Of a stretch of 64,000 bases of DNA, positions 7,411-60,566 are shown piece after piece. A program made the position numbers and the translations under genes. How positions within the stretch are numbered: the first letter of the stretch is position 1; every line of letters starts with the position of its first letter. Below the pieces are notes generated by a model that did no database searches, was not told the origin of the DNA, and worked only from the letters and a program-made list of their open reading frames with translations. The stretch is from Patescibacteria group bacterium (lineage in GTDB: Bacteria > Patescibacteriota > Minisyncoccia > Portnoybacterales > UBA2143): assembly GCA_018830295.1 (NCBI GenBank), contig JAHJSM010000001.1:1980-65979 (forward strand). Direction: 5' to 3'.

Positions 7411-7428
7411 AATATTATTGGTTAAATT

Positions 7429-7459
7429 GGGGGCTGCCCCCGTTGCGGGGGCAGCCCCC
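7429..7459. repeat. Family-A GC-rich perfect palindrome GGGGGCTGCCCCC-GTTGC-GGGGGCAGCCCCC
   Basis: Read directly; 13-bp arms. It lies in the spacer between the two transketolase subunit genes. Confidence 0.95.
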
Positions 7460-7467
7460 AAACTTAC

Positions 7468-11389: not shown

Positions 11390-11420
11390 GGGGGCTGCCC
11401 CCGCAACGGGGGCAGCCCCC
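11390..11420. repeat. Family-A palindrome (GCAAC spacer)
   Basis: Exact copy of GGGGGCTGCCCCCGCAACGGGGGCAGCCCCC, between the pilin start and the glutaredoxin stop. Confidence 0.95.
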
Positions 11421-11695: not shown

Positions 11696-11730
11696 GGGGA
11701 CAGTCCCCATTCAGAATGGGGACTGTCCCC
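11696..11730. repeat. Family-B palindrome GGGGACAGTCCCC-ATTCAGAAT-GGGGACTGTCCCC
   Basis: Read directly; 13-bp arms with a 9-nt spacer. Confidence 0.95.
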
Positions 11731-13326: not shown

Positions 13327-13415
13327 TTGACAATAACAGTTATTTTGATACAATATAGTTAATCACTACGAAAAAGACCCTGATGCGGTTTCGTCCGCAT
13401 TGGGGGCTTTTTTGT
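13327..13415 (+). ncRNA. Candidate small antisense RNA: a strong sigma70-like promoter (TTGACA-N16-TGaTACAAT, 13327-13354) followed about 30 nt later by a hairpin plus T-run (13384-13415)
   Basis: Motifs read on the plus strand. There is no plus-strand ORF here. The transcript would overlap the 3' end of the BRO-N gene on the opposite strand. Confidence 0.3.
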
Positions 13416-21556: not shown

Positions 21557-22099
21557 TTATTTGATTAAATCCATTAGCAATTTTATTTCTTCCTTAGTAA
21601 CCTTGCAATCAGCATCATCAGCAGCGAGTATATATGGAATTTTGTCTAAAAGTTCCGTGCTATTCCATGGAGATTCTTTATGCGATTCATCCTCTATTTT
21701 TCTTGTGTTAACATTTCCAAATCTAATACATACTTTTTGAAGTATATCTAATTCGTTTTCAGAAAAATATTTTTCATCATCTTTGCTAAATTTTCTTAGC
21801 GGCAAAATTCTATGTATTTTTTGTCCTTCTAATGTTTCTATTTTTATCGTATCTGACAAAATTGCGTCATCCATATCGTCATCAACATTATCAACTAAAT
21901 TTTTTATGTTTGATGGTATTGGCCCGCGTTCTAAATGAACATAATCGTCATAAGTTACCGGCGATCCATACTGTTTTACATGCATAAAATCCAAAAAGTA
22001 GAAAAGTTTCATCAACTTAACTTTGCCCAAAAATCTAGGATTAGTATGCGCGCAAAAATACAAAAGAATAGCTTTTAATTTTGATATAGATATACGCAT
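21557..22099 (-). CDS. Panacea (DUF4065, SocA-like) antitoxin-domain protein
   Basis: KLMKLFYFLDFMHVKQYGSPVTYDDYVHLERGPIPS matches the Panacea/DUF4065 core (KLqKLlYfad...GrPit...Y.a...GPV). Confidence 0.7.
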   Translation of the reverse strand: MRISISKLKAILLYFCAHTNPRFLGKVKLMKLFYFLDFMHVKQYGSPVTYDDYVHLERGPIPSNIKNLVDNVDDDMDDAILSDTIKIETLEGQKIHRILPLRKFSKDDEKYFSENELDILQKVCIRFGNVNTRKIEDESHKESPWNSTELLDKIPYILAADDADCKVTKEEIKLLMDLIK

Positions 22100-23823: not shown

Positions 23824-26800
23824 TTATTTTTCGTTAAAAGTTACAATATTTCCTGCTTGATTCATCCACAACCAATATCCTTCTCCTGAATTCATATAGT
23901 CATCAGTTCTATTTACATTATTCTCATCTGATAGTATATAACTTCCTGTTAAACTTTGAAGATAAGTTGAGCTTAACATGCGAGCTGAAGTCGATTTCAA
24001 TCCAATAAGATTCCATCCTTGTACCACTTCATAGGTAGGCGATGGATTAGAAAATTCTGGCATCTCTGTCCCTGTTACAGTCAAAACAGCAGGGTTGGTC
24101 ATGTTTACCCAATAACCTTTTCCGTCTTCCATTGTTGTTAATGTTTTTACTTGACCAGGAACATAGTTTAACCATTCACCTGAATTATAATATTTTACTA
24201 ATATAATCTTATCGTTTATACCAGTAAGCACTGTGGCTATGTCAGTATTGCTAAATATCACTGGCAATGAAATTAAGTTCCAACCAGTGTTTAATTGAAT
24301 ATCGCAAGTCCATGTTCCACCGCCATTATCAGTACAAATCGGAGTTGGTTCAACCACCGCTTCTGTAATACTAATACTTCTAGCACTTGAGCCTTCCTTG
24401 CCAACTTCATCAGTAACAATAATTCTTATTGCTACATTCTCCCCAATAGCTTCTTCTGGCACAGTCCATTGGTAAAATGGTTGTGGATTATTATCGCTTT
24501 CTATAATCGTTGTCCAATTTGTTCCGCCATCCTTGGAATAATCTAATTTTGTTTTCAAATCTCCCATTGCAGTAATATTATCCGAAGCGTCCCAAGTAAT
24601 ATTATGGACTGAACCTGCTTGCCAATTCTCGCCTCCGTTAGGATTAATTAATTCAACGGTTGGAGAAGTGCTATCAACGCTTATTCCAAAAGCATCCACA
24701 TTTTGAGATATAATATTGTTTCCCGCTAAATCAGTAACTGTTATTTTTATATAACATTTAGAACTATTAACATTGGGAACAAGCCATGAATATTCACCAT
24801 CATTTGCTGTATTTATCACAATATCGTTCCAACTGTATTTATTATCATCAGAATATTTTAGTTTAATAGGCGCATTACTAAAATTATCATCTATGGCATC
24901 CCATTTTATAAGATATTGAGAACCGCCTTGTAGTGTTGAAGGGAAAACAAGAAGCGCGACTGTCGGCGTGTTGGCATCAATAGTTTTAGCAACATCACTT
25001 CCATCAACTGCAATTGAAACATTGCCTGCTGGGTCAGTTGCTTGCGCTCCTGTTAATTGTAAGGTAGTAGTTTGATCACTTTGCCCCTCTTCTACTGTAT
25101 AAGTTGCGGTATAAATATCTCCGCCGCTAACTGCAGTCCAAGTTAAATTTCCGCCGTTATAAGTGGCAGGGGTAATAGTTAAACCAGTTTCAGTAGTAGC
25201 GACATCAACTGTAAAAGTGACAGTATCTCCGATTTTTAACCAGCCTGCGCCAGTAGCGTCTGAAGTAACTGAACTGATTACTGGGGTATTAGCGTCAATT
25301 GCTAAAGTGTTGGCAGTTACGGTCGTATAGGCGATATTTTCATTACCTGCTGTGTCTTTTAGAATTACACTCGCTGTGATTGCGCCAGAAGCTACATCAA
25401 GATTTCCTTCTACCACAAGATAAGTTGCCGTATATGTATTATCGTTATTATCAACTAACGGGGCAGTAACATCTACGCTATTTACAGTGATAACACTGGC
25501 AGTATAACCAACCGCATCGGCAGTAATAGTTAAAATGACTGTATCGCCTACTTTAGCGGTTCCCGAATTTGGACTAACTTCAATTTTACTGATAGTCGGT
25601 GCGACTGTATCTACCGTCCAAGTATAAGTTGTCGCGCTTCCTTCTGCCTGCCAATTACCTGCTTGATCTCTTCCAATTACAGAAATTATATGAGAATCCT
25701 CGCTTAATCCGGTCTCACTTATTGCGGTAGCGAACGGTGTTTCTGCTCCATAACCTCTATCGTCTAAATCATATTTATAATAAACAACTTGATCACCGCT
25801 TACACTTAAAGTAATTTCATCACTGCTAATTGGACTAACTACATCTGGTAATATTGCAATTGGCGCAGTTTCGTCAATCAGATCGCAACTTTCATTAGTA
25901 CACCAAGGTCTGTAATTAAAATTACCACTTAAACTACCGATGCCGATTCCGTTTGGATTATCCGCATGAATTGGTCCTGAGGCGCTTCCCCACCAATTTT
26001 CCGCAAAAGCTTGACTAATTGACCCATAATTAATTACTGGGGAATTAAATTTATTTCTTTGTACTAAATAATTACTAGCATAATCAGCAATTCCTATATC
26101 TTCCGCATTGTCATGAAAATAATTTAACTTTACAGTCGCGTAGTTGATAGCGCCTATGCCAGCCGTATTATTATAGAATTCATTATTCTCTATATTAACA
26201 ATCCCGCTTCCGCTATTACCTAAATAAACCCCGGAAGTTAAATCGTGTATTGTATTATTTGTTATATTAACTCCATATACACCGGGTCTATCAAATAATA
26301 CACCTCTTCCACCAACGCTTGCTCCTTGCCCTACAAGAATATTATTAGATATTACAACACTAGTTACGCCAACTGGCAAATCTATTAAAACGCCGCCTGC
26401 GGATATTGTAAATTCCGTTACAGATACATCGTTGGCTGTAATTTCTAAATTACCATTAATAGTAGTGATGTTTTTTCCAGCGCCAACTAGATTTAACGCT
26501 TTATTAATTGTTAAATTTTCAGCATAAGTCCCAGCCGAGACATTAATTGTATCTCCCTCTGTCGCCTTGTTAATCGCTTCTTGAATGTTTATAAAATCAA
26601 CATCAGTTGTCCCAAAAGTAACATCAACAATCAATATTTTATTATAATTATAAACAAAAGAAACTGAATCTTTACTAACAGTATTCCCAGCAGAATCAGT
26701 AGCCGAAAGAACTAATGCATTTCTTCCATCATTTAAGTTAGCATTAGGAATCATTGCACCTAAACAACTAACATCAATTAGTGTTCCGCCATTTATAGTG

Positions 26801-29800
26801 TAGGAACAAGCAACTGAATTAGCATCGGTCGCTGTAAATGTTAGTGGTATATCAGCGATGTAAACAGTGTCTGCCACAGGGGAAATAAAGCTACTAATAA
26901 CTGGATTCGTTTTATCCCAAACCAAAGTCATTGTATCAGAAGAACTTTTTCCTGCATTATCAACAACTGTTAAACGGATTGTATAAGTATCGTCTGGGTT
27001 TGTTCCGTTTGCTTCAATTGTTGTATCTTCTGTGCTTGGTGTTCCAAAAGTAATTGTTCCAGCTCCACTTGTGGTTACATCTGTCCATAAATAACTTGCT
27101 ACTCCAGAAACACTATCATCAACTGTTGCATCTTGAGTAAATAGAGCGTTAACAATTTTATTTGTTCCAGCCTCTACATTAGGATCAGTTAAATCAACTT
27201 TAAATGTTTGATTTGCTATTTCTTCGTCATTCCCTGCAACATCTACTGAGTAATAATACAAAGTATCAGTGCCTTCTGAAGCAGTTAATATTCCTGTATA
27301 TTCTGCATAAGTTCCAGATGTCCCCCATTTATAATAAATTTTATCACAACCGCTTGTATCATCAGCGCAAGTCAATGTTATTGTTGGTTGCGTCACATAC
27401 CAGTTGCTCGTTCCATTTGGACTTACAGGACTTGTAATAAGAGTTGTTGCCGGAACAACTGTGTCCTTGATAATTCCACCCTCGCTGTCAGCTCCTATAT
27501 TTCCAGATGTATCAGCATCTTTGAAATATAAAGTAAATGAAGCGCCTTCTACCACTCCGCTAAATTCAGCGATAGCAGACATTTTTGTGACCCCGCTTGC
27601 GCAAACTGTCCAATTAGTGTCATCAACAGAACATTGCGAATTAGTTGAATCAGTTGCAAAAGTTATTACAGTATCACTATTTACATAAGCGCCAGTCAAC
27701 GGAGCAGTTATATTTACTACTGGAGCAATCATATCTTTAGTTGCGATACTGATTCCGGCTGAACTAACATTTCCCGCCGCATCAGTTAAAGTCGCGGAAG
27801 CTGTTAAATTTCCATCAGCCAAAGCTGAAACATCTATACTGGTAATATTAATATTCTCGCTTCCATCAACACTACTTACTCCCGTTATTTCTAAGGCTTC
27901 TTTATCTTTTACTGAATAACTTACAACAGCATTTGCTTCGCCAGTACCAGTAATAGTCATTGTTGAATTAACAATATTAATATCTGTTGCTAATATAGTC
28001 GGAGCGCCCGGCGTATTCGCGTCAATAGTTTTTACAACATCAATTCCATTTATTGAACCGCCGATATTTCCAACCAAATCAGTTAATGTAACGCCTGTTA
28101 ATTGCAAAGGTGAAGTTTGGTCCAATTGATCTTCCTCAACCGTATAAGTCGCCGTATAAGTTGTGCCATCAACAGTTAACCAAATCAAAGTTCCGCCATT
28201 ATAAACAGTTGGGCTAATAACCAAACCTGTTTCTGGAATAGTAGGGGTAACTGTAAAAATAATAGTATTCCCTACTTTTAATATTCCTGCTGTTGTTGCA
28301 TTAGAAATTACCGATGTTATAGCGGGAGCAAATGTATCAATATCATAACTAGCAGAACTTGTAGGTCCAACTGGAGCATTTCCGGCTACATCAGTCCAGT
28401 TAGTGCCAACGGTGATAACATTTTCATTATCATCAATATCTATTGCAGGAGTAAGGGTAGCTGTATAGATTTTTGCATCTCCATTGTCAATAGTAAAATT
28501 AGATAATGTCCCGTTTTCAATAACCGTCACATCATCGACAGTAAATCCAGTTGGTACTTCTGAAAATGCAAAGGTTACTGCGGCGGTTTCTCCGACTTTT
28601 AGAGCTGTGTCATTAAGAGTAATTGTAACTGTTGGTTCTAATGTATCAACATCAAATATTCCTGTGCTATCAGCATCCATCACATTCCCAGGTGTAGCTA
28701 AATCTACCGCGTCAGACACAATAATTATTGCCGTTGCTTCTTCGTTCGCATCTGAGAGAGTGAATATTTCTGTCCAAGTATTTCCAGACCAAGCGCCATC
28801 ACTTTGAGTTATTATAACGCCTATTATTCCCGTAAAGCTAAAAGTCGGGGCTGTAGAATTCATCGCCTCGCTAAATACAACAGTTATCGTAACATCTCCC
28901 ACTTTTGCCAAACTTGGGTTTGCTGTCACGCTAACAATAGTTGGCTTTGCTCCATCACTTACATCTTGATTTTCTACTTGAAGCAAGGCATTCTTTGAAT
29001 TATCCTCAAATGCGCCAACTGCAATTTCTAAATCTTCAGAATCGTCTGTAATCGCTGATGTTCCTAAATCTGAACCAAAAGTCAATACCACTACATCATC
29101 TTTGAATTCATTAATAAAAAACCCTGTCGGATTAATCCCTTTTAAAGTTATATTTTCAAGAGGATCTATGTAACCCCCAATGTCGTCTTCGCTAAATGTT
29201 AATTCAACGGTGGTTGAATTTGTTAAAACAGCTGTTTCCAATATTGGAGCAATACCATCAAAAGTAATAGGGCTTGCCACTGGAGCAGAAAGTCCAGCTA
29301 AATCTTTAACATCCCCAACGTAACCTACATTAGGAGTTTCTCCTGTCCCGAAATTAGTTCCCAACGTTAAAGTGATAACCCCATTTAATTCACTAGTGCC
29401 TGTTATTGTATAGCCCTCTACACTAAAATCAGCTATTGCATCTGTAGTTCCATCCAAATCCTCAGAAAATGCCAATTCAATAGTATTTATCGTTTTAGTT
29501 CTGGTTGACCAAAGTACAGGGTTAGCCTCATCTGTAGAAGTTTGAGAAAAACTTGCCAATGGATTACCAACCATATCTGCTCCACTTCCAGCAGTATAAA
29601 CAACAACTTTCGCTTCCGTTCCAGTTGCTTTATTTTCCACAACAATATCAAAAGTATTATCGTTTACTATGCCTCCAGTATCTATGGTAATTACAGGAGC
29701 TGAACCACATATAAAATCGCCTGCAGAAAAAGTTGAGTCATCTACTGCTTCACTAAATACAATAGTAGCCATTTCCACATTTCCATCACCATTGGTATCT

Positions 29801-30351
29801 TTAGTGGTGATTGATAAAATTGTCGGCGCTGTCACATCAACAGTTGTTTTTGTATCAGTGTTAAATGTATAACCCTCATTTACATCTCTTGTCGCAACAC
29901 CCCATGTATATTCCGTGTCTACTGTAGGCGTTGGAGATGTAGCATTAAAAGCAACATTAACGCTATTGTCAGCAGTTAAAATACTATCGCTAAATACATC
30001 TGTCATGCAAACAGCTTGTAAACTAGAAGATTCTGAATCATTTGTCCACCCCGCAGGGCAAGAAATAGTGCTTGTGTCTATTAAAAAACCAGATCCACTT
30101 TCAACGCTTATAGTGATTTTATACACAGAATCCGCTCCATTATTCGTCACTGTAAATCCATAAGCATCAGTAGAACCGCCAGCAACAAATTCCGGCGCAG
30201 TAGTCGCTGTCGCCGTATGTTCCGCCAAAACAAAATTATAAACAAAAAAACCGCCCATGATTAAGACGGCAAACAAAATTAAAAAAGGCGACCACCTAAG
30301 CCCCCCCCCAGAAACTTTTTCCCTCCAACGAGAAATATGAGAATTATTCAT
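23824..30351 (-). CDS. Giant (2175 aa) surface adhesin-like protein with Ig-like (Big) repeats and a right-handed beta-helix segment
   Basis: N-terminal TM/signal region. A ~105-aa repeat unit ending in TIDANTP occurs three times. The NxxNxI.NN repeats (NITNNTIHD...NIENNEFYNN) are typical of parallel beta-helix. Confidence 0.85.
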   Translation of the reverse strand: MNNSHISRWREKVSGGGLRWSPFLILFAVLIMGGFFVYNFVLAEHTATATTAPEFVAGGSTDAYGFTVTNNGADSVYKITISVESGSGFLIDTSTISCPAGWTNDSESSSLQAVCMTDVFSDSILTADNSVNVAFNATSPTPTVDTEYTWGVATRDVNEGYTFNTDTKTTVDVTAPTILSITTKDTNGDGNVEMATIVFSEAVDDSTFSAGDFICGSAPVITIDTGGIVNDNTFDIVVENKATGTEAKVVVYTAGSGADMVGNPLASFSQTSTDEANPVLWSTRTKTINTIELAFSEDLDGTTDAIADFSVEGYTITGTSELNGVITLTLGTNFGTGETPNVGYVGDVKDLAGLSAPVASPITFDGIAPILETAVLTNSTTVELTFSEDDIGGYIDPLENITLKGINPTGFFINEFKDDVVVLTFGSDLGTSAITDDSEDLEIAVGAFEDNSKNALLQVENQDVSDGAKPTIVSVTANPSLAKVGDVTITVVFSEAMNSTAPTFSFTGIIGVIITQSDGAWSGNTWTEIFTLSDANEEATAIIIVSDAVDLATPGNVMDADSTGIFDVDTLEPTVTITLNDTALKVGETAAVTFAFSEVPTGFTVDDVTVIENGTLSNFTIDNGDAKIYTATLTPAIDIDDNENVITVGTNWTDVAGNAPVGPTSSASYDIDTFAPAITSVISNATTAGILKVGNTIIFTVTPTIPETGLVISPTVYNGGTLIWLTVDGTTYTATYTVEEDQLDQTSPLQLTGVTLTDLVGNIGGSINGIDVVKTIDANTPGAPTILATDINIVNSTMTITGTGEANAVVSYSVKDKEALEITGVSSVDGSENINITSIDVSALADGNLTASATLTDAAGNVSSAGISIATKDMIAPVVNITAPLTGAYVNSDTVITFATDSTNSQCSVDDTNWTVCASGVTKMSAIAEFSGVVEGASFTLYFKDADTSGNIGADSEGGIIKDTVVPATTLITSPVSPNGTSNWYVTQPTITLTCADDTSGCDKIYYKWGTSGTYAEYTGILTASEGTDTLYYYSVDVAGNDEEIANQTFKVDLTDPNVEAGTNKIVNALFTQDATVDDSVSGVASYLWTDVTTSGAGTITFGTPSTEDTTIEANGTNPDDTYTIRLTVVDNAGKSSSDTMTLVWDKTNPVISSFISPVADTVYIADIPLTFTATDANSVACSYTINGGTLIDVSCLGAMIPNANLNDGRNALVLSATDSAGNTVSKDSVSFVYNYNKILIVDVTFGTTDVDFINIQEAINKATEGDTINVSAGTYAENLTINKALNLVGAGKNITTINGNLEITANDVSVTEFTISAGGVLIDLPVGVTSVVISNNILVGQGASVGGRGVLFDRPGVYGVNITNNTIHDLTSGVYLGNSGSGIVNIENNEFYNNTAGIGAINYATVKLNYFHDNAEDIGIADYASNYLVQRNKFNSPVINYGSISQAFAENWWGSASGPIHADNPNGIGIGSLSGNFNYRPWCTNESCDLIDETAPIAILPDVVSPISSDEITLSVSGDQVVYYKYDLDDRGYGAETPFATAISETGLSEDSHIISVIGRDQAGNWQAEGSATTYTWTVDTVAPTISKIEVSPNSGTAKVGDTVILTITADAVGYTASVITVNSVDVTAPLVDNNDNTYTATYLVVEGNLDVASGAITASVILKDTAGNENIAYTTVTANTLAIDANTPVISSVTSDATGAGWLKIGDTVTFTVDVATTETGLTITPATYNGGNLTWTAVSGGDIYTATYTVEEGQSDQTTTLQLTGAQATDPAGNVSIAVDGSDVAKTIDANTPTVALLVFPSTLQGGSQYLIKWDAIDDNFSNAPIKLKYSDDNKYSWNDIVINTANDGEYSWLVPNVNSSKCYIKITVTDLAGNNIISQNVDAFGISVDSTSPTVELINPNGGENWQAGSVHNITWDASDNITAMGDLKTKLDYSKDGGTNWTTIIESDNNPQPFYQWTVPEEAIGENVAIRIIVTDEVGKEGSSARSISITEAVVEPTPICTDNGGGTWTCDIQLNTGWNLISLPVIFSNTDIATVLTGINDKIILVKYYNSGEWLNYVPGQVKTLTTMEDGKGYWVNMTNPAVLTVTGTEMPEFSNPSPTYEVVQGWNLIGLKSTSARMLSSTYLQSLTGSYILSDENNVNRTDDYMNSGEGYWLWMNQAGNIVTFNEK

Positions 30352-31910: not shown

Positions 31911-32741
31911 CTATTTCAAATCTTTTATTTTGTTTCTTAAAATATCTTTAATATTTTTGCCCAATTTTTTTACAAACGCTATGTCGCTAATAAAATTTTC
32001 TAAATCCAAGGTAATGCTTTTATAGTCAATTTTTTCCACGATTGCCAGAAGTTTCTTCTTTAAATCATCAATTGTCTCCACCTCTTCAATACAATCTAAA
32101 TTAGGACTTATTCCCTGCTCTAAATACCACATCAAATCAAAATAGTCGCGACCCTTAACGCTAATTAACTTTTTTCCTTTTTTATCTGTCTTTCCCCATT
32201 TTCTGCGCAAAACGGCCTTGATTTTGGTCGCCATTAATGTCGGCAAATCAAAAGTTTTTATTAAAATAGATTTATTGTTTTTAAACAACGGCTTAATTTC
32301 AGTTTTGTATTTACGGCAAAAATTAAAATTCTTGAATATTTCTATTTTTAAATGTAAAAAATCAGATTCAGCGCCGCTTGATAATCCAAAATCTTTTAGA
32401 ATCGGAAATTTTAAGTATATTCTAAACTTCTGCGGTTTAATTGAAACAGAAAAATCTGTTTTTTTACAGAAAAAGTTTTTTAAATCATCAGCCAATTCTT
32501 CTATTGATACTTTTTTTTCAATATCAACAAAGTCAAGATCCTCGGAGAGTCGTGGCAGAGAATAGCATTGGGAAAGGCAAGAACCGCCATAGAACACCAA
32601 TTTATTATATTTTTCATTAGAATATATGTAGTCAAGCGCGAGAACCTGAAAATATTCCTTTAATAAGTTTCTTTTATATAAGTTTGATTTTTCAAAATTT
32701 TTTTTGATTATATCTTTGATAATTGTTTCTGTTTCGTTCAT
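31911..32741 (-). CDS. Nucleotidyltransferase AbiEii/AbiGii toxin family (DUF1814)
   Basis: LVFYGGSCLSQCYSLPRLSEDLDF matches the AbiEii GG(T)..(R)(F)SED(I/L)D signature. Overlaps the upstream gene by 4 nt. Confidence 0.75.
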   Translation of the reverse strand: MNETETIIKDIIKKNFEKSNLYKRNLLKEYFQVLALDYIYSNEKYNKLVFYGGSCLSQCYSLPRLSEDLDFVDIEKKVSIEELADDLKNFFCKKTDFSVSIKPQKFRIYLKFPILKDFGLSSGAESDFLHLKIEIFKNFNFCRKYKTEIKPLFKNNKSILIKTFDLPTLMATKIKAVLRRKWGKTDKKGKKLISVKGRDYFDLMWYLEQGISPNLDCIEEVETIDDLKKKLLAIVEKIDYKSITLDLENFISDIAFVKKLGKNIKDILRNKIKDLK

Positions 32742-33406
32742 ATTCTTGATTTAAATAAATAATTAAATATGTCAGTCATTTTTTTACTGCTTTCTAATTT
32801 GACATATTTTTCCAATTCTTTAATATCTTTTTTTCTAAAATCGCCAAGATTAAGCCGCAGTTCTTTAACTGCCGTTTTATGTCGCAAAATATTTTTTCTT
32901 AAATACAAAAAATCAAATAATGCTTTCGCTAAACTGGCTTTTTTAATTAAGTACTCGCCTTTTCTATGAAGTTCAAAACCGATAAATAAATTTTCTTTAA
33001 TGTGATGATAATCAAAAAGTCCCAGTTTATTGGAAAACTTTTTTGTCTTTTTTTCGGTGATTAATGTGAAGCTGTTTGAGGTCTCGCTTAAAATATTATT
33101 TTTCCCAAGCGCGTATTCAAGGCTGATATAAGCGGGCTCATATAAAATATTAGCAATAAATTCCAAATATTCATTCATGCCATTGCTTTTTTCAATAAAT
33201 TCCAAATATTTTTTGGAAACATAAACTCCCTTTTTCAAAGAAATTACTTCGCCTTTTTTTGACAACCTGGACAATAATATTCTTAGATATTTTTTATTTT
33301 CTTCAATAACGGTTAAATTTTCAATACGAAAATAAGGCAAATTTTTTATCGCGCTTTTAATTTTTTCTGAACGAAAACCTTTGGATTTTTTATTTATTTT
33401 TACCAT
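32738..33406 (-). CDS. AbiEi-like antitoxin / transcriptional regulator partner
   Basis: The position and 4-nt overlap with AbiEii are typical of abiEi-abiEii operons; 222 aa with the N-terminal wHTH-like region of this class. Confidence 0.6.
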   Translation of the reverse strand: MVKINKKSKGFRSEKIKSAIKNLPYFRIENLTVIEENKKYLRILLSRLSKKGEVISLKKGVYVSKKYLEFIEKSNGMNEYLEFIANILYEPAYISLEYALGKNNILSETSNSFTLITEKKTKKFSNKLGLFDYHHIKENLFIGFELHRKGEYLIKKASLAKALFDFLYLRKNILRHKTAVKELRLNLGDFRKKDIKELEKYVKLESSKKMTDIFNYLFKSRI

Positions 33407-39793: not shown

Positions 39794-40954
39794 CTATATC
39801 CTCTTATCTTTTTTAATATCCTGCCTTATTTTCTCCATAAAATCAAACATAAAACGCAAATTATGAATTGTCGCCAGGCGCGCCGCGAGTATTTCTTTTG
39901 CTCTGAAAAGATGATGTAAATAGGCGCGAGTGAAATTTTGACAAGTATAACACTGGCAATTTTTCATAATTGGTTTTTTATCTATTTTATAAGTTGTTTT
40001 AAAAATATCCAATTTGCCTCGCTCAGTCAATAGCGTCCCATGCCTCGCCAGTCGCGTCGGCTCAACGCAGTCAAAAAGGTCAATTCCTCTTTTAACCGCT
40101 TCTCTAACATCTTCTAAATACCCAATACCTAATAAATGGCGCAGCTTGTTTTCGGGAAGATAGGGAATAATCCAATCAAGCGCCTTTTTCATCTCGCCTT
40201 TCCCAAACGAACCTCCTATTCCAAATCCATCAAAAGGCATTTCGCCGATAAAGCGCGCGCTTTCTTTTCTTAAATCCTCAAAAAGACCGCCTTGAACAAT
40301 GCCAAAAAGAAATTGATTATCTTTATTTTTCGCCTTTAAACATCTTTCTGCCCAGCGATGCGTCCGTCCCATCGCCTTTTTTGTGTAATCATAATCTGCC
40401 AAAGGAGAAGAACATTCATCAAAAGCGAAAATAATATCAGCGCCTAAGTCCTCTTGAATCTTGATTGAAATTTCTGGCGTAAAGCGATGCGCGGAACCGT
40501 CCAAATGAGAGGTAAAATCAACCCCCTCCTCATCAATCTTGACTAATGAAGCATGGGAGGAATGGGGACAGTCCCCAATTTTTGGGGACTGTCCCCATTC
40601 CTTTTCCCCCTCTTTCAAAATCTTACCAACCTTATCTTGAATCGCCATCCCTAAACTAAAAACCTGAAAACCGCCACTATCAGTCGCCGTCACTCCTTGC
40701 CAATTCATAAATTTATGCAGCCCGCCCATCTTCTTTACAATTTTATTCCCCGGCTGAAGATACAAATGATAAGCGTTAGCCAAAACGCCCTCAAAACCAA
40801 TTTTTTTAATATCTTCCGGGGTTAATCCTTTAACCGACGCCTTAGTCGCCACGGGAAAAAACGCCGGCGTTCTCATTACCCCGTTAGCGGTTTTAATCAC
40901 TCCCAACCGCGCCTGCGATTTTGAATGTTTTTTTGTAATTTTGAAAAATGACAT
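39794..40954 (-). CDS. tgt: Queuine tRNA-ribosyltransferase. The likely start is M17 (MSFFKIT...); the tracked N-terminus MGAAPVAGAAP is repeat-derived. The gene carries an in-frame 33-nt palindromic insertion
   Basis: DSGGFQV, FDEC and CxCxxC...H zinc site motifs, collinear with E. coli Tgt. Confidence 0.9.
   Translation of the reverse strand: MSFFKITKKHSKSQARLGVIKTANGVMRTPAFFPVATKASVKGLTPEDIKKIGFEGVLANAYHLYLQPGNKIVKKMGGLHKFMNWQGVTATDSGGFQVFSLGMAIQDKVGKILKEGEKEWGQSPKIGDCPHSSHASLVKIDEEGVDFTSHLDGSAHRFTPEISIKIQEDLGADIIFAFDECSSPLADYDYTKKAMGRTHRWAERCLKAKNKDNQFLFGIVQGGLFEDLRKESARFIGEMPFDGFGIGGSFGKGEMKKALDWIIPYLPENKLRHLLGIGYLEDVREAVKRGIDLFDCVEPTRLARHGTLLTERGKLDIFKTTYKIDKKPIMKNCQCYTCQNFTRAYLHHLFRAKEILAARLATIHNLRFMFDFMEKIRQDIKKDKRI
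40564..40596. repeat. Family-B palindrome GGGGACAGTCCCC-AATTTTT-GGGGACTGTCCCC lying inside the tgt coding sequence (33 nt, in frame)
   Basis: Read directly. It translates as ...EWGQSPKIGDCPH... within a region that is about 27 aa longer than in E. coli Tgt. Confidence 0.9.
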
Positions 40955-40969
40955 AAATTTATGCTTGTT

Positions 40970-41000
40970 GGGGGCTGCCCCCGCAACGGGGGCAGCCCCC
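40970..41000. repeat. Family-A palindrome (GCAAC spacer)
   Basis: Exact copy, in the tgt / SpoU methyltransferase spacer. Confidence 0.95.
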
Positions 41001-41006
41001 AACTCT

Positions 41007-41462: not shown

Positions 41463-41476
41463 ATCGTCCTGAGTTT

Positions 41477-41507
41477 GGGGGCTGCCCCCGCAGCGGGGGC
41501 AGCCCCC
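41477..41507. repeat. Family-A palindrome (GCAGC spacer)
   Basis: GGGGGCTGCCCCCGCAGCGGGGGCAGCCCCC. Confidence 0.95.
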
Positions 41508-41557
41508 AAACAAATCAAAGTTAAAGGGCTGTCGGCATTTCCAACAACCCTTTTTTG

Positions 41558-45103: not shown

Positions 45104-45115
45104 TTTCTTAAATTT

Positions 45116-45146
45116 GGGGGCTGCCCCCGCAACGGGGGCAGCCCCC
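45116..45146. repeat. Family-A palindrome (GCAAC spacer)
   Basis: Exact copy, between the GH1 start and the mutM stop. Confidence 0.95.
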
Positions 45147-45153
45147 AAATTTC

Positions 45154-45960
45154 TTACCTCTGACATCGCGGACAAAAATACGATGAACGACTGCCTGTTT
45201 TTACCCTTTTAATTTTTTCTCCGCAAACGCGGCAATCTTCTCCCTCACGCTGATAAACCTTCGCAAGCGGCATATACCCTCCCTTTCTCCCGTAAGCGTC
45301 AAGATAATCCCTGTCCGAACTCCCTTTCTTTTTTAAAGCAAGCGACAAAACATTTTTAATCGCCTCATAAATCGCCTTTATCTCTTTTTCTTTTAATGTC
45401 CCCGCGTTTCTATCAGGCAAAACCCCGGCAGAAAACAAAATCTCGCAAGCGTAAATATTGCCAATCCCCGCGATAAATTTTTGGTCCATCAAAAGCGTTT
45501 TAATGACCGACTTTTTCCTTTTCTCAATCCGTTCCTTAAATAAATTAAAAGAAAAACTTTTATCAAGCGGCTCGGGACCAAAATTCATTTCATCAAAAAA
45601 ATTGCCCAAATCTTTTTCCGAAATCAATTTAACAAAACCAAACTTCCGCAAGTCATTATGAAGCAAATAACTCCCGTCCGTAAAATAATAAACAATATGA
45701 CTATGCTTCCCCACCTCTCCGTTAAAAATCAGTTGCCCGCTCAATTTCAAATGAATAACTAAAAAGTTCCCACTAGACAGTTTAATCAAAAGCAACTTCG
45801 CCCGCCTCTCAACACCCTCTATTTTCGCCCCCACGACCGCCTTCTTAAATTTCCCCAAAGACGCCTTAACCATTCCTGGCAAAGAAACCAAAACCCGCTC
45901 AATCTTTTTCCCTTTGAGCGCCTGCCCCAACTGCCTCCCAATTGTCTCCACCTCCGGCAT
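45154..45960 (-). CDS. mutM: Formamidopyrimidine-DNA glycosylase
   Basis: MPEVET N-terminus (the catalytic Pro after Met) and a C-terminal CxxC...CxxC zinc finger. Confidence 0.85.
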   Translation of the reverse strand: MPEVETIGRQLGQALKGKKIERVLVSLPGMVKASLGKFKKAVVGAKIEGVERRAKLLLIKLSSGNFLVIHLKLSGQLIFNGEVGKHSHIVYYFTDGSYLLHNDLRKFGFVKLISEKDLGNFFDEMNFGPEPLDKSFSFNLFKERIEKRKKSVIKTLLMDQKFIAGIGNIYACEILFSAGVLPDRNAGTLKEKEIKAIYEAIKNVLSLALKKKGSSDRDYLDAYGRKGGYMPLAKVYQREGEDCRVCGEKIKRVKTGSRSSYFCPRCQR

Positions 45961-45980: not shown

Positions 45981-47033
45981 TTATCTTGGCGTTTCTTTGT
46001 ATTGAGTAGCGACGAGAACGCCTTTTAGCGCATCTATGTCTTCTAAGACCACTCCTGTCCCGCGGACGACTGCCGTAAGGGGGTCTTCAACCAATTTAAC
46101 TGGCATTTCTGTTTGCTCGGCAATTAATCGGTCAAGCCCTCGCAACAAACCGCCACCGCCCACTAAAAAGATACCTCGGGTCATAATATCAGCCACTAAT
46201 TCCGGAGGCGTTTCTTCAATAGTCGCTTTAATTGAATTAACTAATAATTTAATTGAATGATTTAACGCTTTTCGGATTTGGCTGTCATTCACAATAACCT
46301 CTTTTGGCAGGCCGGTAATAATATCTCTCCCTCTCATCGCTGTTTCTATTGGTTCATCTAACGCGCAAGCCGAACCAACCGCTATCTTTATATCCTCCGC
46401 CGTTTTTTCGCCTAAAAGAAGATTAAATTCTTCGCGCGCGTAATTAACAATATCCTCGTTAAATTTATCTCCGGCAATCCGCAAACTGCGGCTAACGACA
46501 ATCCCGCCCAGAGAAATGACAGCGACTTCCGATGTCCCGCCGCCAATATCAACGATCATATTGCCCGTCGCTTCTTGAACAGGCATTCTGACTCCAATCG
46601 CCGCCGCCATCGGTTCTTCAATTAGATAGACCTCGCGCGCGCCGGCGTTTCTGACCGCATCTTCAACCGCCCTTTTCTCCACTTCCGTCACGCCCGAAGG
46701 GATGCCAACCACGACGCGCGGTCGCGGCAAAATAGAAAAACTTTCTCGGTGAACTTTATCAATAAAAAATTTGAGCATCTGCTCGGTCACTTCAAAATCG
46801 GAAACAACCCCCGCCACCAAAGGCCGCGAAGCGACAATGTGCGCCGGCGTCCGTCCAACCATTTTTTTCGCTTCCTGCCCAATAGACAAAATCTGACCTG
46901 TTTTTTGGTTAATCGCCACGACTGACGGCTCATTAATAACAATCCCTCGTCCTTTGACATAGACGAGAGTGTTCGCTGTCCCTAAATCAATTCCGATATC
47001 CTTTGAAAAAAATCCGAAAAATTTATTAAGCAT
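45981..47033 (-). CDS. mreB: Rod-shape-determining protein MreB
   Basis: DLGTANTLV and DIGGGT actin-fold motifs. Confidence 0.9.
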   Translation of the reverse strand: MLNKFFGFFSKDIGIDLGTANTLVYVKGRGIVINEPSVVAINQKTGQILSIGQEAKKMVGRTPAHIVASRPLVAGVVSDFEVTEQMLKFFIDKVHRESFSILPRPRVVVGIPSGVTEVEKRAVEDAVRNAGAREVYLIEEPMAAAIGVRMPVQEATGNMIVDIGGGTSEVAVISLGGIVVSRSLRIAGDKFNEDIVNYAREEFNLLLGEKTAEDIKIAVGSACALDEPIETAMRGRDIITGLPKEVIVNDSQIRKALNHSIKLLVNSIKATIEETPPELVADIMTRGIFLVGGGGLLRGLDRLIAEQTEMPVKLVEDPLTAVVRGTGVVLEDIDALKGVLVATQYKETPR

Positions 47034-48270: not shown

Positions 48271-48279
48271 AAGTTAATT

Positions 48280-48310
48280 GGGGGCTGCCCCCGCAACGGG
48301 GGCAGCCCCC
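48280..48310. repeat. Family-A palindrome (GCAAC spacer)
   Basis: Exact copy, upstream of the proS start. Confidence 0.95.
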
Positions 48311-48353
48311 AATTTTAACTAAAACAACCACTCAATGGGGTTGTTTTTTTGCT

Positions 48354-52067: not shown

Positions 52068-52098
52068 GGGGACTGTCCCTGTTGCGGGGACAGTCCCC
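52068..52098. repeat. Family-B palindrome with the A-type spacer (GGGGACTGTCCCT-GTTGC-GGGGACAGTCCCC)
   Basis: Read directly. It links the A and B families, which share the GTTGC/GCAAC spacer. Confidence 0.95.
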
Positions 52099-52116: not shown

Positions 52117-53229
52117 TCACGCTACCTTATTTTCCTCAATGATTTTTATAATCGCCTCCTTTATTCCTATCTCAAACCTCTCCTCGGAAAATTTCTCAGC
52201 TCTTTTTCTGATAACAGCAGGACTGTAGGCGTCAAAATTTATTAGCAACCTGCGAACGCCATCCGCCAGAACTTCTGTCACTGGCTCGTCAAAAAATTCG
52301 CCAGTGATTCCTTCTATGACCGTTTCAACGGCGCCGCCTTTGCGGTATGCTAAAACCGGTTTGCCAAAACTCATCGCTTCAACAGGCGCGATGCCAAAAT
52401 CATCCTCGCCGGGAAAAATAAAAGCGCGGCAATTTTTAAGACATTCTCGCGCTGTCTCATCCGATTGCCAGCCCAAAAACCTAACATTAGAATGAGCCAT
52501 TTTTTTAAGCCGTTTAGAATCAGGACCTTCGCCGATAATAACCAAAGGCAATTCCAATTTATTAAAAGCGTCAATCGCCAAATCAATCCTCTTGTAAGGG
52601 GTTAATTGGGAAATAATCAAAAAGAAGCCATCATCGCGAGCGGACTGCCAATCAGCGCCCGTCAAAAAAGCCGGCGGGTAAATCACTTTTGCTTCCCGCC
52701 CGTAATATTTTTTAATCCGCTCGGCTGTTGTTTTTGAATTGGCGATAAAATAGTCAACGCGATTAGAGGCCGCTCTATCCCACATTCGGATATAGTGCAT
52801 GACAATCTTAATCGCCGCGTTAGTGAAAAATCCTTTTTTCTGCTCTTTAATATAGCGGCAATACCTGTCCCAACTAAAACTCATCGGGCTGTGACAATAG
52901 CAAATATGAACCGTTTTCGGTCGTGTAATCACGCCCTTGATAAAACTACTTGAAGAGGAAATAACCAAATCAAAATCCCTCAAATCAATCGTCTCGGCCG
53001 CCGTCGGAATAAAAGGCAAAAGATATTTCTGCCGCCGACGCCAAAACTTCGGAAACTTCTGTAAAAAAGAAGTCCTGATTTTTTTCCCGGGAAAATACTT
53101 TCCCATTTTCTCCTCATCATAAAGAAGAGTATAAATCTCCGCCTTTGGAAAAATTTTCCGCAAACATAAAAAGACCCTCTCGGCCCCTCCAAAGCGGATT
53201 AAATAATCATGCAATAAAGCGATTTTCAT
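52117..53229 (-). CDS. GT4-family glycosyltransferase. The likely start is M17 (MKIALLHDY...), giving an ATGA overlap with the upstream gene
   Basis: GT-B fold; the EDDFGIAPVEAMSFGKPV segment fits the E-x7-E GT4 motif. Confidence 0.8.
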   Translation of the reverse strand: MKIALLHDYLIRFGGAERVFLCLRKIFPKAEIYTLLYDEEKMGKYFPGKKIRTSFLQKFPKFWRRRQKYLLPFIPTAAETIDLRDFDLVISSSSSFIKGVITRPKTVHICYCHSPMSFSWDRYCRYIKEQKKGFFTNAAIKIVMHYIRMWDRAASNRVDYFIANSKTTAERIKKYYGREAKVIYPPAFLTGADWQSARDDGFFLIISQLTPYKRIDLAIDAFNKLELPLVIIGEGPDSKRLKKMAHSNVRFLGWQSDETARECLKNCRAFIFPGEDDFGIAPVEAMSFGKPVLAYRKGGAVETVIEGITGEFFDEPVTEVLADGVRRLLINFDAYSPAVIRKRAEKFSEERFEIGIKEAIIKIIEENKVA

Positions 53230-54356
53230 CTTGACATATTTTGTTTGGTTAAAACTCCCAGCGTTTCCCGCGCGCATTTTTCCCAGGAGAATTTTTTAAT
53301 GTTCTGAAAGCCCTTTTCAATTAAACCCCTTCTCAACTCCCCGTCGCTTATTACTTTATACACTGCTTCTGATATTTTTTCAATGTTTTTTGGCGAAACG
53401 AAGAGCGCGCCCTCGCCCGCTACCTCCGGCAAAGAAGATGTCTCTGAAGCAATGACTGGACAACCCATCGCCTGCGCTTCCAAAATCGGCATTCCAAAGC
53501 CCTCGTAAAAAACAGGAAAAAGAAAAGCGGCGGCGTTTTTTAACAACTCCCATTTCTTCGCCTCGCTCACAAAACCCATTTCAACAATATCTTTATTCCC
53601 CGCAATTCTCCCAGCGAACGCCTCATAACCATACCCTCTTCCCCCCGCCAAAACCAACTTATGCGGCAACCCGTATTTTTTTTTAAACAACTCAAACGCC
53701 CCAATCATCCCCCCAATATTCTTCTTCCCCTCCAACCGCCCAATAAAAAGAATATAGGGACTGGAAAATGGGGGCTGCCCCCGAAACGGGGGGCAGCCCC
53801 CATTTTTATCAGGGGACAGTCCCCCGCCGCGGGGGCTGCCCCCGTCTTCATAGCCGTGATAAACAACTGATATTTTCTCCGGATTGGCTTTATATATTTT
53901 AACTAAATCGTTTTTAGTGTTTTGGGAAATGGCGATAACGCGCGCTGAATTTTTTAACGCGTATTTTGCGCTCCAACGGAGATACGCCAAACGCTTTTTG
54001 GGATACATTTCGGGGTAATGCTCATACTCCAATCCGTGAATAGTTGTGACTGAGTTTTTTGGATGAACAAGCGGCAGAACATGGACAGGAATAAAAAGAA
54101 TATCTGGCTCACGCGCCGCCATTTCAGCGGACAACCTGCATTGCGTCCACGACGGCAAGCCCCAGCGAAGCCGCTTAATTTTAAAATTCTCCGGCAATGG
54201 AAAATCAAAAATTTTGTTAAAAGGAGAATATAAAACAAAACGATGCTCTTCGCTTTCCTTAAGCATCGTTAAATGTTTAATTAACTGATAAGTATATTCT
54301 TCAACGCCCGTCCGCGGCTCAACAAAAGCCGCCATAGCGTTAATGCCGATTTTCAT
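53226..54356 (-). CDS. GT4-family glycosyltransferase carrying an in-frame 75-nt insertion built from palindromic repeats
   Basis: The GT4 C-terminal domain (FYEGFGMPILEAQAMGCPVIAS). The segment DGGSPRGGGLSPDKNGGCPPFRGQPPFS is encoded by the repeats at 53770-53844. Confidence 0.75.
   Translation of the reverse strand: MKIGINAMAAFVEPRTGVEEYTYQLIKHLTMLKESEEHRFVLYSPFNKIFDFPLPENFKIKRLRWGLPSWTQCRLSAEMAAREPDILFIPVHVLPLVHPKNSVTTIHGLEYEHYPEMYPKKRLAYLRWSAKYALKNSARVIAISQNTKNDLVKIYKANPEKISVVYHGYEDGGSPRGGGLSPDKNGGCPPFRGQPPFSSPYILFIGRLEGKKNIGGMIGAFELFKKKYGLPHKLVLAGGRGYGYEAFAGRIAGNKDIVEMGFVSEAKKWELLKNAAAFLFPVFYEGFGMPILEAQAMGCPVIASETSSLPEVAGEGALFVSPKNIEKISEAVYKVISDGELRRGLIEKGFQNIKKFSWEKCARETLGVLTKQNMSR
53770..53844. 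repeat. Family-A palindrome (GAAAC spacer, one extra G) fused to a chimeric B-left/A-left unit (GGGGACAGTCCCCC-GCCGC-GGGGGCTGCCCCC), all inside a coding sequence
   Basis: Read directly; 75 nt, a multiple of three. Confidence 0.9.
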
Positions 54357-54360
54357 AGGT

Positions 54361-55374
54361 TTACATCTGTTTCTTAGACATAATGCTTCTTTTGTAAACA
54401 TCTAAATGTTCCAAAGCAAGACCAGTTCCTTTTGCTACGCAAAGCAGGGGCTCTTTCGCGATGCGGCAATTAACGCCTGTCGCTTCGGTAATTAGAGCGT
54501 CCAAATTTCTTAACAACGCGCCGCCGCCGCTTAAAACCATACCCATATCCATAATATCAGCCACCAGTTCCGGAGGCGTCCCGCGCAAAACGGTTTTGAC
54601 CGTTTTAATAATTTCTCTAAGATTTTCCGACATCGCTTCCGTGATCTCGTTGCTTTTAACTTCAATCGTTTTAGGCAGTCCGCCGACCAAATCGCGACCC
54701 TGGATTTTCAAAGTCGTTTCTTCTTTTTGCGGCAAAGCGCTCCCTATTTTAATTTTAATCCTTTCCGCCGTTCCGTCGCCAATTGCTAAATTATGTTTTT
54801 TTCTAATATACTCGCTAATCGCCTGGTCAAGTTTGTCTCCGCCCACCCGAACCGATTCGCAGGAAACGATCCCGCCTAAAGAAATAACAGCCATCTCCGA
54901 AGTTCCGCCGCCAATGTCAATAATCATGTTACCCGCCGGTTTGTTGATGGCAAGCCCCGCCCCAATCGCCGCCAAAACCGGCTCTTTGACGATGTATGCG
55001 TTCTTGGCGCCCGCTTTAATAGTCGCCTCAATTACAGCTCGCCTTTCGGTGGACGAAACGCCCGCCGGAACAGAAACCATAATGTCTGGCTTAATAATCC
55101 GCCAACGCCCCAAAACCTTGCTGATAAAATAGCGAAGCATCGCCTCAGTAATGCGATAATCGGCGATTACCCCATCCTTCATTGGTCTGGAAACATTAAT
55201 CGTTTCAGGCGCTTTCCCAAGCATTTCTTTCGCTTGATTGCCAACCGCCAAAATTCTATTGTCTTCAATAGAAACAGCCACCACCGTCGGCTCGTTGACA
55301 ACAACGCCCTTTTTAGGAAGAAAAACCAAAGTATTAGCCGTCCCTAAGTCAATACCAATTTTTGTGATAAACAT
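54361..55374 (-). CDS. Second MreB-family actin homolog (Mbl/MreB paralog)
   Basis: DLGTANTLV and DIGGGTSE motifs; about 45% identical to the 45981-47033 product by eye. Confidence 0.85.
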   Translation of the reverse strand: MFITKIGIDLGTANTLVFLPKKGVVVNEPTVVAVSIEDNRILAVGNQAKEMLGKAPETINVSRPMKDGVIADYRITEAMLRYFISKVLGRWRIIKPDIMVSVPAGVSSTERRAVIEATIKAGAKNAYIVKEPVLAAIGAGLAINKPAGNMIIDIGGGTSEMAVISLGGIVSCESVRVGGDKLDQAISEYIRKKHNLAIGDGTAERIKIKIGSALPQKEETTLKIQGRDLVGGLPKTIEVKSNEITEAMSENLREIIKTVKTVLRGTPPELVADIMDMGMVLSGGGALLRNLDALITEATGVNCRIAKEPLLCVAKGTGLALEHLDVYKRSIMSKKQM

Positions 55375-57701: not shown

Positions 57702-57706
57702 TTTTT

Positions 57707-57786
57707 GGGGACAGTCCCTCGCAACAGAGAGGGACTGTCCCCGAAACGCGTGATCGGGGGCTGCCCCCGCAACGGGGGCAGCCCCC
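57707..57786. repeat. Composite element copy 1: B-palindrome (GGGGACAGTCCCTC-GCAACAGAG-AGGGACTGTCCCC), linker GAAACGCGTGATC, then A-palindrome
   Basis: Read directly; AGATTA follows it. Confidence 0.95.
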
Positions 57787-57792
57787 AGATTA

Positions 57793-58000
57793 AAGATCTC
57801 TGTTATAAGGTCAGACCTTCTGAGCGCGACCTTTAGAAAGAAATAAAAGGTCAGACCTTTCCATCAGTTTGTCACGAGAAAATAAACTGTTACGAGTTGT
57901 CGTCTTGAAAGGTCTGACCTTTTATTTCTTTCAGAAGGTCTGACATCGCAAGTAGCGACATTTCTTAAGGTCGCGCTTGAGAGGTCTGACCTTTGAATTT
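57793..58000. repeat. About 200-bp nested imperfect palindrome built from AAGGTCAGACCTT / AAGGTCTGACCTT units between convergent genes
   Basis: At least six copies of the 13-bp palindrome. Arms of about 60 nt (57810-57862 against the reverse complement of 57905-57996) with a 35-nt extra segment in the right arm. Confidence 0.8.
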
Positions 58001-58008
58001 TGAATTGA

Positions 58009-58115
58009 AAAACCCCGCGAAAGCGGGGTTTTATCTTTGGGGACAGTCCCTCGCCGCGAGGGACTGTCCCCGGAACGCGTGATCGGGGGCTGCCCCCGCA
58101 ACGGGGGCAGCCCCC
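58009..58115. repeat. Hairpin AAAACCCCGCGAAAGCGGGGTTTTATC followed by composite element copy 2 (B-palindrome, GGAACGCGTGATC, A-palindrome)
   Basis: Read directly. The ORF-track peptide MGTVPRREGLSPERVIGGCPRNGGSPQI is its translation. Confidence 0.95.
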
Positions 58116-58187
58116 AGATTAACTTTGAAATGAAAAAAGGGATATTCAATTATGAATATCCCTTTTATTTTTTTGAAAAACGAACAA

Positions 58188-60451: not shown

Positions 60452-60566
60452 GGGGACAGTCCCTCGCAACAGAGAGGGACTGTCCCCGGAACGCGTGAAT
60501 GGGGGCTGCCCCCGCAACGGGGGCAGCCCCCAGATTAAAAAAACCCCGCGAAAGCGGGGTTTTATC
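60452..60566. repeat. Composite element copy 3 (B-palindrome, GGAACGCGTGAAT, A-palindrome), followed by the same CCCCGCGAAAGCGGGG hairpin
   Basis: Read directly; it has the same components, in the same orientation, as copy 2. Confidence 0.95.

Follow-up and report, generated by a model that had tools for sequence, protein, structure and literature searches.

How does a palindromic DNA repeat come to lie, in frame, inside the gene of a conserved tRNA-modifying enzyme, and what becomes of that enzyme? The question is raised by tgt, the gene for tRNA-guanine(34) transglycosylase (Tgt), in 64,000 nucleotides of Patescibacteria DNA (contig JAHJSM010000001.1 of assembly GCA_018830295.1, positions 1,980 to 65,979 of the forward strand; hereafter the window, in whose own numbering positions are given). 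A first-pass annotation, made from the letters alone, had marked 40564-40596 as a palindrome of a repeat family called B, translated within the enzyme. In the present study, we consider it probable, at roughly 0.78, that this palindrome is a member of a REP-like family, that it landed in a tolerant loop of Tgt and that it is translated through, with the enzyme still functional as judged from its sequence.

The inverted repeat proved to be real, and larger than first marked. An inverted-repeat scan delimits a perfect 45-nt palindrome at 40558-40602, with arms of 21 nt each (40558-40578 and 40582-40602) that are 100% complementary around a 3-nt spacer; the 33 nt marked earlier cover both 13-nt cores and stop short of the ends. 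The family B core, GGGGACWGTCCCC, is a small palindrome on its own, a 13-nt hairpin unit, and has 47 matches in the window (at most two mismatches, both strands) against 0.21 expected from shuffles, far above that expectation. The core of a sister family, A (GGGGGCWGCCCCC), has 49 matches in the same 64 kb against 0.33 expected. Exact 11-mers place family B at 7 loci and family A at about 12; these ~19 loci are intergenic with two exceptions and are nearly always inverted dimers. The tgt copy measures 45 nt (15 aa) and the others 31-43 nt, and the outer six nucleotides, AGGAAT/ATTCCT, although mutually complementary, are found in the tgt copy alone. The repeats are GC-rich, in contrast to the AT-rich, Portnoybacteria-like host genome (39.6% GC). 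Furthermore, stop codons are absent from all six frames of the family A and B dimers, a property shared by 0.2% of random 45-mers and 1.9% of the 45-mers of the window, and these frames encode peptides rich in Gly, Pro, Ser, Gln and Ala (GAAP, GLPP, GGCP, GGSP, GQPP; GDSP, GTVP, GQSP, GLSP, GDCP).

In the minus-strand tgt frame the palindrome reads, as annotated, ...KEWGQSPKIGDCPHSS..., and the protein around it has the marks of an intact enzyme. It matches Pfam TGT (PF01702) over its full length (E=1.6e-136) and the Tgt proteins of T. maritima and Z. mobilis with E values of about 1e-94 to 1e-98, PDB phmmer giving 4.6e-98 for 2ash. The catalytic residues D92, D179 and D295 align with Asp102, Asp156 and Asp280, and the zinc ligands C333, C335, C338 and H364 with Cys318, Cys320, Cys323 and His349 (Z. 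mobilis numbering), all of them invariant in 84 orthologues. Identical and 98%-identical proteins are named tRNA guanosine(34) transglycosylase Tgt at NCBI, from Candidatus Portnoybacteria or Patescibacteria, and agree with the 386-aa start. Outside the loop, dN/dS is 0.07-0.12 for every pair, repeat-bearing genes included, and by this measure tgt is under purifying selection.

Since the contig comes from a metagenome assembly and repeats may mislead assemblers, a repeat-induced misassembly or a dead gene had to be considered, the annotation itself having raised the prospect of a frameshifted pseudogene. However, the 90% cluster of the window protein has seven members, drawn from ENA, NCBI, JGI and Logan assemblies, and the loop peptide is identical in every one of them, two 98%-identical variants included. 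With the same peptide in seven proteins from four sources and the dN/dS of about 0.1, and with the open reading frame (ORF) intact and every catalytic and zinc-binding residue in place, we therefore take the locus to be neither an assembly artefact nor a pseudogene, an explanation that is scarcely credible here.

Where, then, does the palindrome sit in the protein? In the alignment with T. maritima Tgt, residues 102-137 stand in for 2 residues, an excess of about 34 aa. The annotation had noticed such an excess, which it put at about 27 aa relative to E. coli; the excess exists, and most of it belongs to a lineage-wide insert and not to the palindrome. This insert is not peculiar to the window: it runs through the orthologues of the phylum, as seen in two alignments of Patescibacteria orthologues (33 and 84 sequences) and in 112 surveyed loops. 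The start of the loop is conserved (G102, G110 and K111 are invariant; consensus GxGLxxxVGKIxK, also given as GxAxxxKVGKILK); a stretch variable in both sequence and length lies between it and the conserved (A)KLVKID. The commonest loop length is 33 aa, against 42 aa in the window; the palindrome fills the variable stretch with 15 codons and makes the loop, on balance, about 9 residues longer than the 33-aa baseline. Repeat-derived peptides occur in about 10 of the 112 orthologue loops.

An AlphaFold2 model built from the 84-sequence alignment (mean pLDDT 89.1, pTM 0.87) keeps the TGT fold, and Foldseek superimposes it on the Z. mobilis and T. maritima enzymes with TM scores of 0.88-0.91 and an rmsd of 1.4-1.8 A. 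Residues 102-134 are the sole stretch with pLDDT below 50, as an unstructured surface loop would give; the model thus predicts an otherwise canonical enzyme from which the insert extends as a flexible excursion. The annotation's further expectation, a loop away from the active site, finds no support in the sequence alignment, in which the base of the loop directly follows the equivalent of Tyr106-Leu111 of Z. mobilis TGT, which line the active site. The active-site figure of a Z. mobilis TGT paper leaves Tyr106-Leu111 out 'for the sake of clarity', which we take to mean that this segment overlies the pocket. The repeat-coded part starts 16 residues further out along the loop.

This position gives some room to the thought that the peptide itself was selected, with WGQSPK-GDCPH as a functional motif (e.g., a Cys/His metal or tRNA contact) and the palindromy incidental. 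The loop does emerge beside the active-site segment, reading frame and orientation agree in the window and in a relative (P0011, below), and the half-unit of another relative, P0003, is read in the same frame (IGDCPH). Nevertheless, the palindrome is perfect at synonymous positions as well, the same 13-mer stands in non-coding spacers, other orthologues carry unrelated sequences of differing lengths at this place, and its pLDDT is below 50, all of which make such selection very improbable.

The relatives answer more directly whether the loop existed before the repeat. Profile scans of genome and metagenome contigs with the Tgt alignment gave, among the matches listed, identities of at most 55%; orthologues were then fetched individually, and loop DNA was taken from the syntenic SpoU-tgt-cysS loci of nine of them. 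In orthologues 75-86% identical to the window protein, the loop holds the same repeat, a family-A palindrome, a third repeat, degenerate remnants or nothing. P0011 (76% identity) carries a family-B dimer, ATGGGGACAGTCCCCAAAAAATGGGGACTGTCCCCAT, in the same frame (WGQSPKNGDCPH). P0002 (83%) has a family-A dimer, GGGGGCAGCCCCCGTTGCGGGGGCTGCCCCC; after it come AAAAATT and CCCCATTCC, matching the spacer and right arm of the window's copy. P0003 and P0006 (~85%) combine a right half-unit (GGGGACTGTCCTC or GAGGGCTGCCCCC) with the third repeat, ATTGCCGCGTCGCGGACTCCTCGCAATGAC ('IAASRTPRND'); in P0008 this third repeat is inserted cleanly and in frame, as 54 nt that P0009 lacks. P0004 and P0007 (the latter at 82%) hold decayed remnants. 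P0005 and P0009 (82-83%) and P0014 (77%) are free of repeats and keep the widespread ending ...KTQxAKLVKID; thus, the alignment of close relatives proposed with the annotation does find orthologues without the segment, with a loop of ancestral type, next to others that hold different repeats there.

The third repeat belongs to a family of its own, ATTGCC(G/T)CGTCGCGGACTCCT(C/T)GCAATGAC ('IAASRTPRND'), seen in the relatives' loci L164 (4740-4800), L166 (3345-3500 and 5600-5760) and L168 (370-420); its sites are the tgt loop and, in L166, also intergenic DNA and the inside of an extended SpoU ORF. A fourth palindrome family of like architecture, ATTTCGGAGGTTGAACCTCCGCG / CGCGGAGGTTCAACCTCCGAAAT with 23-nt arms, lies at 4520-4568 of L163, the locus of P0002; one of its frames would encode SEVEPP.

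Did the window and P0011 inherit one palindrome or acquire two? In a loop-masked neighbour-joining tree, P0011 stands beside the repeat-free P0014 (87% identity), distant from the window's clade, and the repeat occurs in none of the members read of the 29-member P0014 cluster. Synonymous sites between the window and P0011 are saturated (dS 1.9), yet the 37-nt core is identical at 36 of 37 positions. Because neutral vertical inheritance cannot give such identity at saturated dS, the family-B element of the P0011 lineage is, on this comparison, a separate acquisition. The right-hand remnants that the window shares with its sub-clade point to one older event there, which overwriting, truncation and arm extension would have followed. 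Relative to P0002 and P0003, the window has 6 nt more on the left and 9 nt more on the right, the extra nucleotides being the copy-specific outer arms AGGAAT/ATTCCT.

Another history would have a single ancient palindrome in the loop, kept family-like by gene conversion and lost often, or loop alleles spread by short-patch recombination. It has in its favor that the right-hand remnants (CCCCAT.. / AAAAATT) are common to the window, P0002, P0003, P0006 and P0007, so that one event predates this sub-clade, and that the tgt copies of the window and P0011 are closer to each other than to other B copies. But the repeat-free xQxAKLVKID recurs across the tree, in the window's clade and in P0011's sister included, and many precise reversions would be needed; moreover, the flanks of the P0011 repeat are like those of P0014 and unlike those of the window, and the two loop positions are 5 codons apart. 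We regard a single origin as quite improbable.

The separate landing of REP-like copies in one tolerant loop, which we prefer, may be pictured as follows. The repeat unit is the 13-nt hairpin GGGGACWGTCCCC, usually with an inverted partner and at times in a mosaic with GGGGGCWGCCCCC; these repeats fill intergenic spacers. One dimer would have entered tgt at the sole tolerant part, the hypervariable distal half of a phylum-specific, low-confidence loop. It may have arrived through transposition by some enzyme, or other copies may have served as its source, by templated copying or gene conversion. The copy probably survived for three reasons: it is stop-free in six frames, its peptide is rich in Gly, Pro, Ser and Gln, and the net length change is a multiple of three; the roughly 9 residues added to the loop would be selectively near-neutral. 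Quasi-palindrome template switching may have perfected the arms, which would explain outer AGGAAT/ATTCCT segments that are complementary and yet specific to this copy. In relatives, the same loop has been struck repeatedly (by family B again, by family A and by the third repeat), the results being then partly overwritten, truncated and extended.

Several observations weigh against this picture. No transposase was found in the window, where 10 unassigned ORFs have no Y1/RAYT domain. No target-site duplication was found in the filled-versus-empty comparisons or around mosaic copies. The P0011 event replaced 31 nt by 37 nt and was not a simple insertion. Strong conservation marks the loop start, which lies next to the active-site segment, and the neutrality of the insert is an assumption. 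Within 21 kb around the P0011 copy (L161) and 7 kb around that of P0002 (L163), no A or B copy occurs outside tgt; the window's intergenic copies on either side of tgt are missing from both loci. Furthermore, both tgt-borne B copies have an A-rich spacer (AAAAATT / AAAAAAT), unlike the other B copies of the window; this could mark a subfamily, selection for Lys, Ile or Asn codons in the loop, or some site specificity. Lone tgt copies together with a shared spacer hint at something more specific than random landing and leave a small probability to a functional or targeted reading.

In its functional form, this reading would have the palindrome kept for its action as a hairpin, in mRNA or DNA, on tgt translation, on the stability of the mRNA or on local supercoiling, with the loop as a neutral 'parking place' for it. 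To the lone copies and the common spacer may be added the core, 36/37 identical across lineages with saturated synonymous sites, and the very stable mRNA hairpin predicted at the tgt palindrome (-53.2 kcal/mol in 101 nt, z -6.5). Against it, tgt is equally constrained in P0005, P0009 and P0014 with its 29-member cluster, all without the palindrome, and other relatives have unrelated repeats or decayed remnants (P0007, P0004) in its place. The sense strand offers no terminator-like site or U-tail at the palindrome; Rfam returned nothing at gathering score anywhere in the 64 kb, tRNA and rRNA included, and its sub-threshold matches at the palindromes are generic miRNA-hairpin models. The same repeats also occur in the linker of a glycosyltransferase. 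A hairpin function in tgt thus appears unlikely.

Two further ideas were rejected. Skipping of the hairpin by RNA removal or translational bypass was discarded, as the frame is kept in every repeat-bearing orthologue, which would be needless if the hairpin were skipped. A target of a diversity-generating retroelement was likewise discarded, the variation consisting of indels and repeats and not of A-directed substitution. Additionally, full B or A dimers found no match in viral contigs and no phage link emerged there; the 37 single 15-mer matches are, by our judgement, no more than chance would give for a collection of that size.

The glycosyltransferase provides a second in-frame case. Three units (A, B, A) are read in frame in a GT4 glycosyltransferase gene of the window, where they fall in the linker that joins the two Rossmann domains of the protein. 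In orthologous GT4 proteins this linker has a baseline of 13-17 aa, and repeat-like peptides fill many of these linkers across many Parcubacteria (GQSLKDSPASRTVLKGQSLK type, LPRFARND, SGESQNP...KPGMT type, SEVEPP). In the peptide comparison, SEVEPP is the would-be product of one frame of an intergenic palindrome, GGAGGTTGAACCTCC, in L163, and it occurs in the linkers of P0123 and P0124. With this linker and the repeat-like peptides of its orthologues, in-frame colonization of permissive loops therefore looks common in the clade, as far as sequence can tell. A bolder proposal is that several stop-free palindrome families systematically colonize, overwrite and extend the same permissive loops of core enzymes (the Tgt loop and the GT4 linker) across many lineages of Patescibacteria, with repeat turnover, and not point mutation, as a main source of loop variation in reduced proteomes; we advance it tentatively, as a possibility with the odds against it. 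The hits may in that case be targeted, with A-rich Lys-codon tracts as landing sites, or may spread via DNA uptake and short-patch recombination. If true, systematic colonization would represent a phylum-wide mode of protein-loop evolution, of which we found no description in the literature searched.

To what known system does this element come closest? In Rickettsia, palindromic elements (RPEs; Ogata et al. 2000, reviewed in PMC10969869 and PMC3733652) are described, in the accounts consulted here, as palindromic repeats lying in frame in functional housekeeping genes. The resemblance is considerable: a hairpin-forming family, in frame, with functional host genes, a peptide placed (here by prediction) in a loop, an intact fold, and several genes affected in one small AT-rich genome. 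The annotation's comparison with RPEs is thereby supported, with corrections on size, active-site proximity and rarity. RPEs span some 100-150 bp and give a family-conserved peptide of 30-50 aa, whereas the present repeats have a unit of 13 nt and inserts of 31-45 nt (10-15 aa), a comparison made by description. Their hosts are Rickettsiales, and here, by the orthologue names, Patescibacteria; RPE-4 and RPE-6 have CGTC at their end, a trait that does not characterize the present repeats.

As to rarity, the annotation had held such insertions to be rare outside Rickettsia, which does not agree with the intragenic REPs documented in several phyla in the sections of PMC3733652 devoted to them. 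There, Di Nocera et al. (2013) report, for Opitutus, Thauera, Rickettsia and other genera, GTAG/CGTC REPs that an ORF contains entirely, mostly as dimers that encode 20-30 aa, some in genes of tRNA-related enzymes, and argue for a lack of functional constraint. As those sections describe them, the GTAG/CGTC REPs are, like the present repeats, short (20-40 bp), high-copy GC-rich stem-loops, mainly intergenic and in inverted pairs, with a minority inside ORFs. They carry a terminal tag, whereas we find no GTAG, and CGTC follows 2 of ~13 copies (11390, 53831); their cognate RAYT is flanked by REPs, whereas the 10 unassigned ORFs of the window gave no Y1_Tnp match. The recurrent colonization of one loop by different families, as seen here, receives no mention for GTAG/CGTC REPs in those sections. 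Because it lacks a GTAG or CGTC tag, the present element is outside both tagged REP superfamilies, and it is far shorter than an RPE.

The BIMEs of E. coli, alternating REP mosaics, have their counterpart in three fixed copies of B dimer, linker and A dimer in the window; the sequences differ and the likeness is one of arrangement. Intragenic miniature inverted-repeat transposable elements (ERIC, YPAL, BOX, Nezha; Delihas 2007/2011, PMC3184786) are small repeats with open frames fused in frame to host genes, and they share both traits with the present repeats. They are, however, 70-300 bp long and have both terminal inverted repeats and target-site duplications; we see neither here, and the element is also too short. 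Taken together, in-frame intragenic REP-like repeats are already known from Rickettsia, Opitutus and Thauera, and what is distinctive here is the recurrent hitting of, and turnover within, one loop. Full-text literature searches found no report of such repeats in Patescibacteria.

With this case, the Candidate Phyla Radiation joins a short list of lineages with palindromic repeats translated inside essential-type enzymes. It also offers an unusually clear natural series, in which one enzyme loop is empty, filled, overwritten or decayed across relatives 75-91% identical; therefore, repeat movement and protein tolerance become testable questions. On the practical side, stop-free repeats make gene callers over-extend N-termini, and they seed spurious 'hypothetical proteins' and odd motifs (GQSP, GDCP, GAAP, GGCP, RTPRND) in metagenome protein databases.

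Such over-extension is visible in the window itself. At 40955-41002, 41463-41513, 45104-45175 and 54357-54401, both stop-to-stop ORFs and the gene calls of public records continue across the stop-free palindromes and give spurious N-terminal extensions (e.g., MGAAPVAGAAPN...), so that Tgt is called at 402 aa (TTG at 41002) instead of 386 and the glycosyltransferase at 391 instead of 376. A GC-island scan for further hidden repeat-derived ORF segments was swamped by ordinary GC-rich stretches. Copies of both families are collected in Table 1.

Table 1. The tgt gene, its palindrome, and other family A and B copies of the window
Feature	Position	Strand	Remarks
tgt, tRNA-guanine(34) transglycosylase, 386 aa, intact	39794..40954	-	ATG at 40954 (MSFFKIT), stop at 39794
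Patescibacteria-specific loop of Tgt, residues 102-136	40547..40651	-	conserved start GMAIQDKVGKILK; hypervariable end hosts the repeat
Family B dimer in tgt	40558..40602		AGGAAT-GGGGACAGTCCCC-AATTTTT-GGGGACTGTCCCC-ATTCCT; minus-strand reading K118-S133 (KEWGQSPKIGDCPHS)
Left 13-nt core GGGGACAGTCCCC	40564..40576		a palindrome in itself
Right 13-nt core GGGGACTGTCCCC	40584..40596		inverted copy of left core
Family A palindrome	40967..41003		50-nt spacer from SpoU-methylase stop to tgt start
Family A palindrome	41473..41511		upstream of SpoU methylase gene
Three units (A, B, A) in GT4 glycosyltransferase ORF 53226-54401	53765..53843	-	in frame; read as GGSPRGGGLSPDKNGGCPPFRGQPPF
Family B dimer	11696..11730		intergenic
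Family B dimer	52068..52098		gap upstream of ATG at 52052, minus-strand gene
Family A dimer	7427..7461		intergenic
Family A dimer	11390..11420		intergenic
Family A dimer	45110..45152		between fpg and GH1 gene; swallowed by over-extended ORF call
Family A dimer	48276..48314		intergenic
Compound B+A mosaic, copy 1 of 3	57703..57790		BIME-like
Compound B+A mosaic, copy 2 of 3	58039..58120		
Compound B+A mosaic, copy 3 of 3	60452..60537		

Outside tgt, all copies are intergenic except the one in the glycosyltransferase gene, and the typical site is a short spacer between consecutive minus-strand genes. The mosaics, of about 88 nt, are laid out as a B dimer, a GAACGCGTGA linker, an A dimer and AGATTAA, and the three of them flank the gene of a 711-aa multi-pass membrane protein (58188-60323). 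Just downstream of the first mosaic, at 57828-57940, lies the longest inverted repeat of the window, with AT-rich 34-nt arms that are 94% complementary and 45 nt apart; it has no relation to either repeat family, A or B.

As for the remaining genes, 63 of the 64 predicted in the window are on the minus strand. A small cluster of defence or mobile-type genes, namely an AbiEii toxin with its upstream partner, a SocA/Panacea antitoxin domain, a PDDEXK_3 nuclease and a protein with a Bro-N domain, occupies 31911-33406, 21557-22099, 316-720 and 13366-14253. Two secreted-looking proteins, one of 207 aa and one of 268 aa, are encoded downstream of a giant ORF of 2175 aa (23824-30351, minus strand), and two MreB/actin-like paralogues (45981-47033 and 54361-55374) lie within 9 kb.

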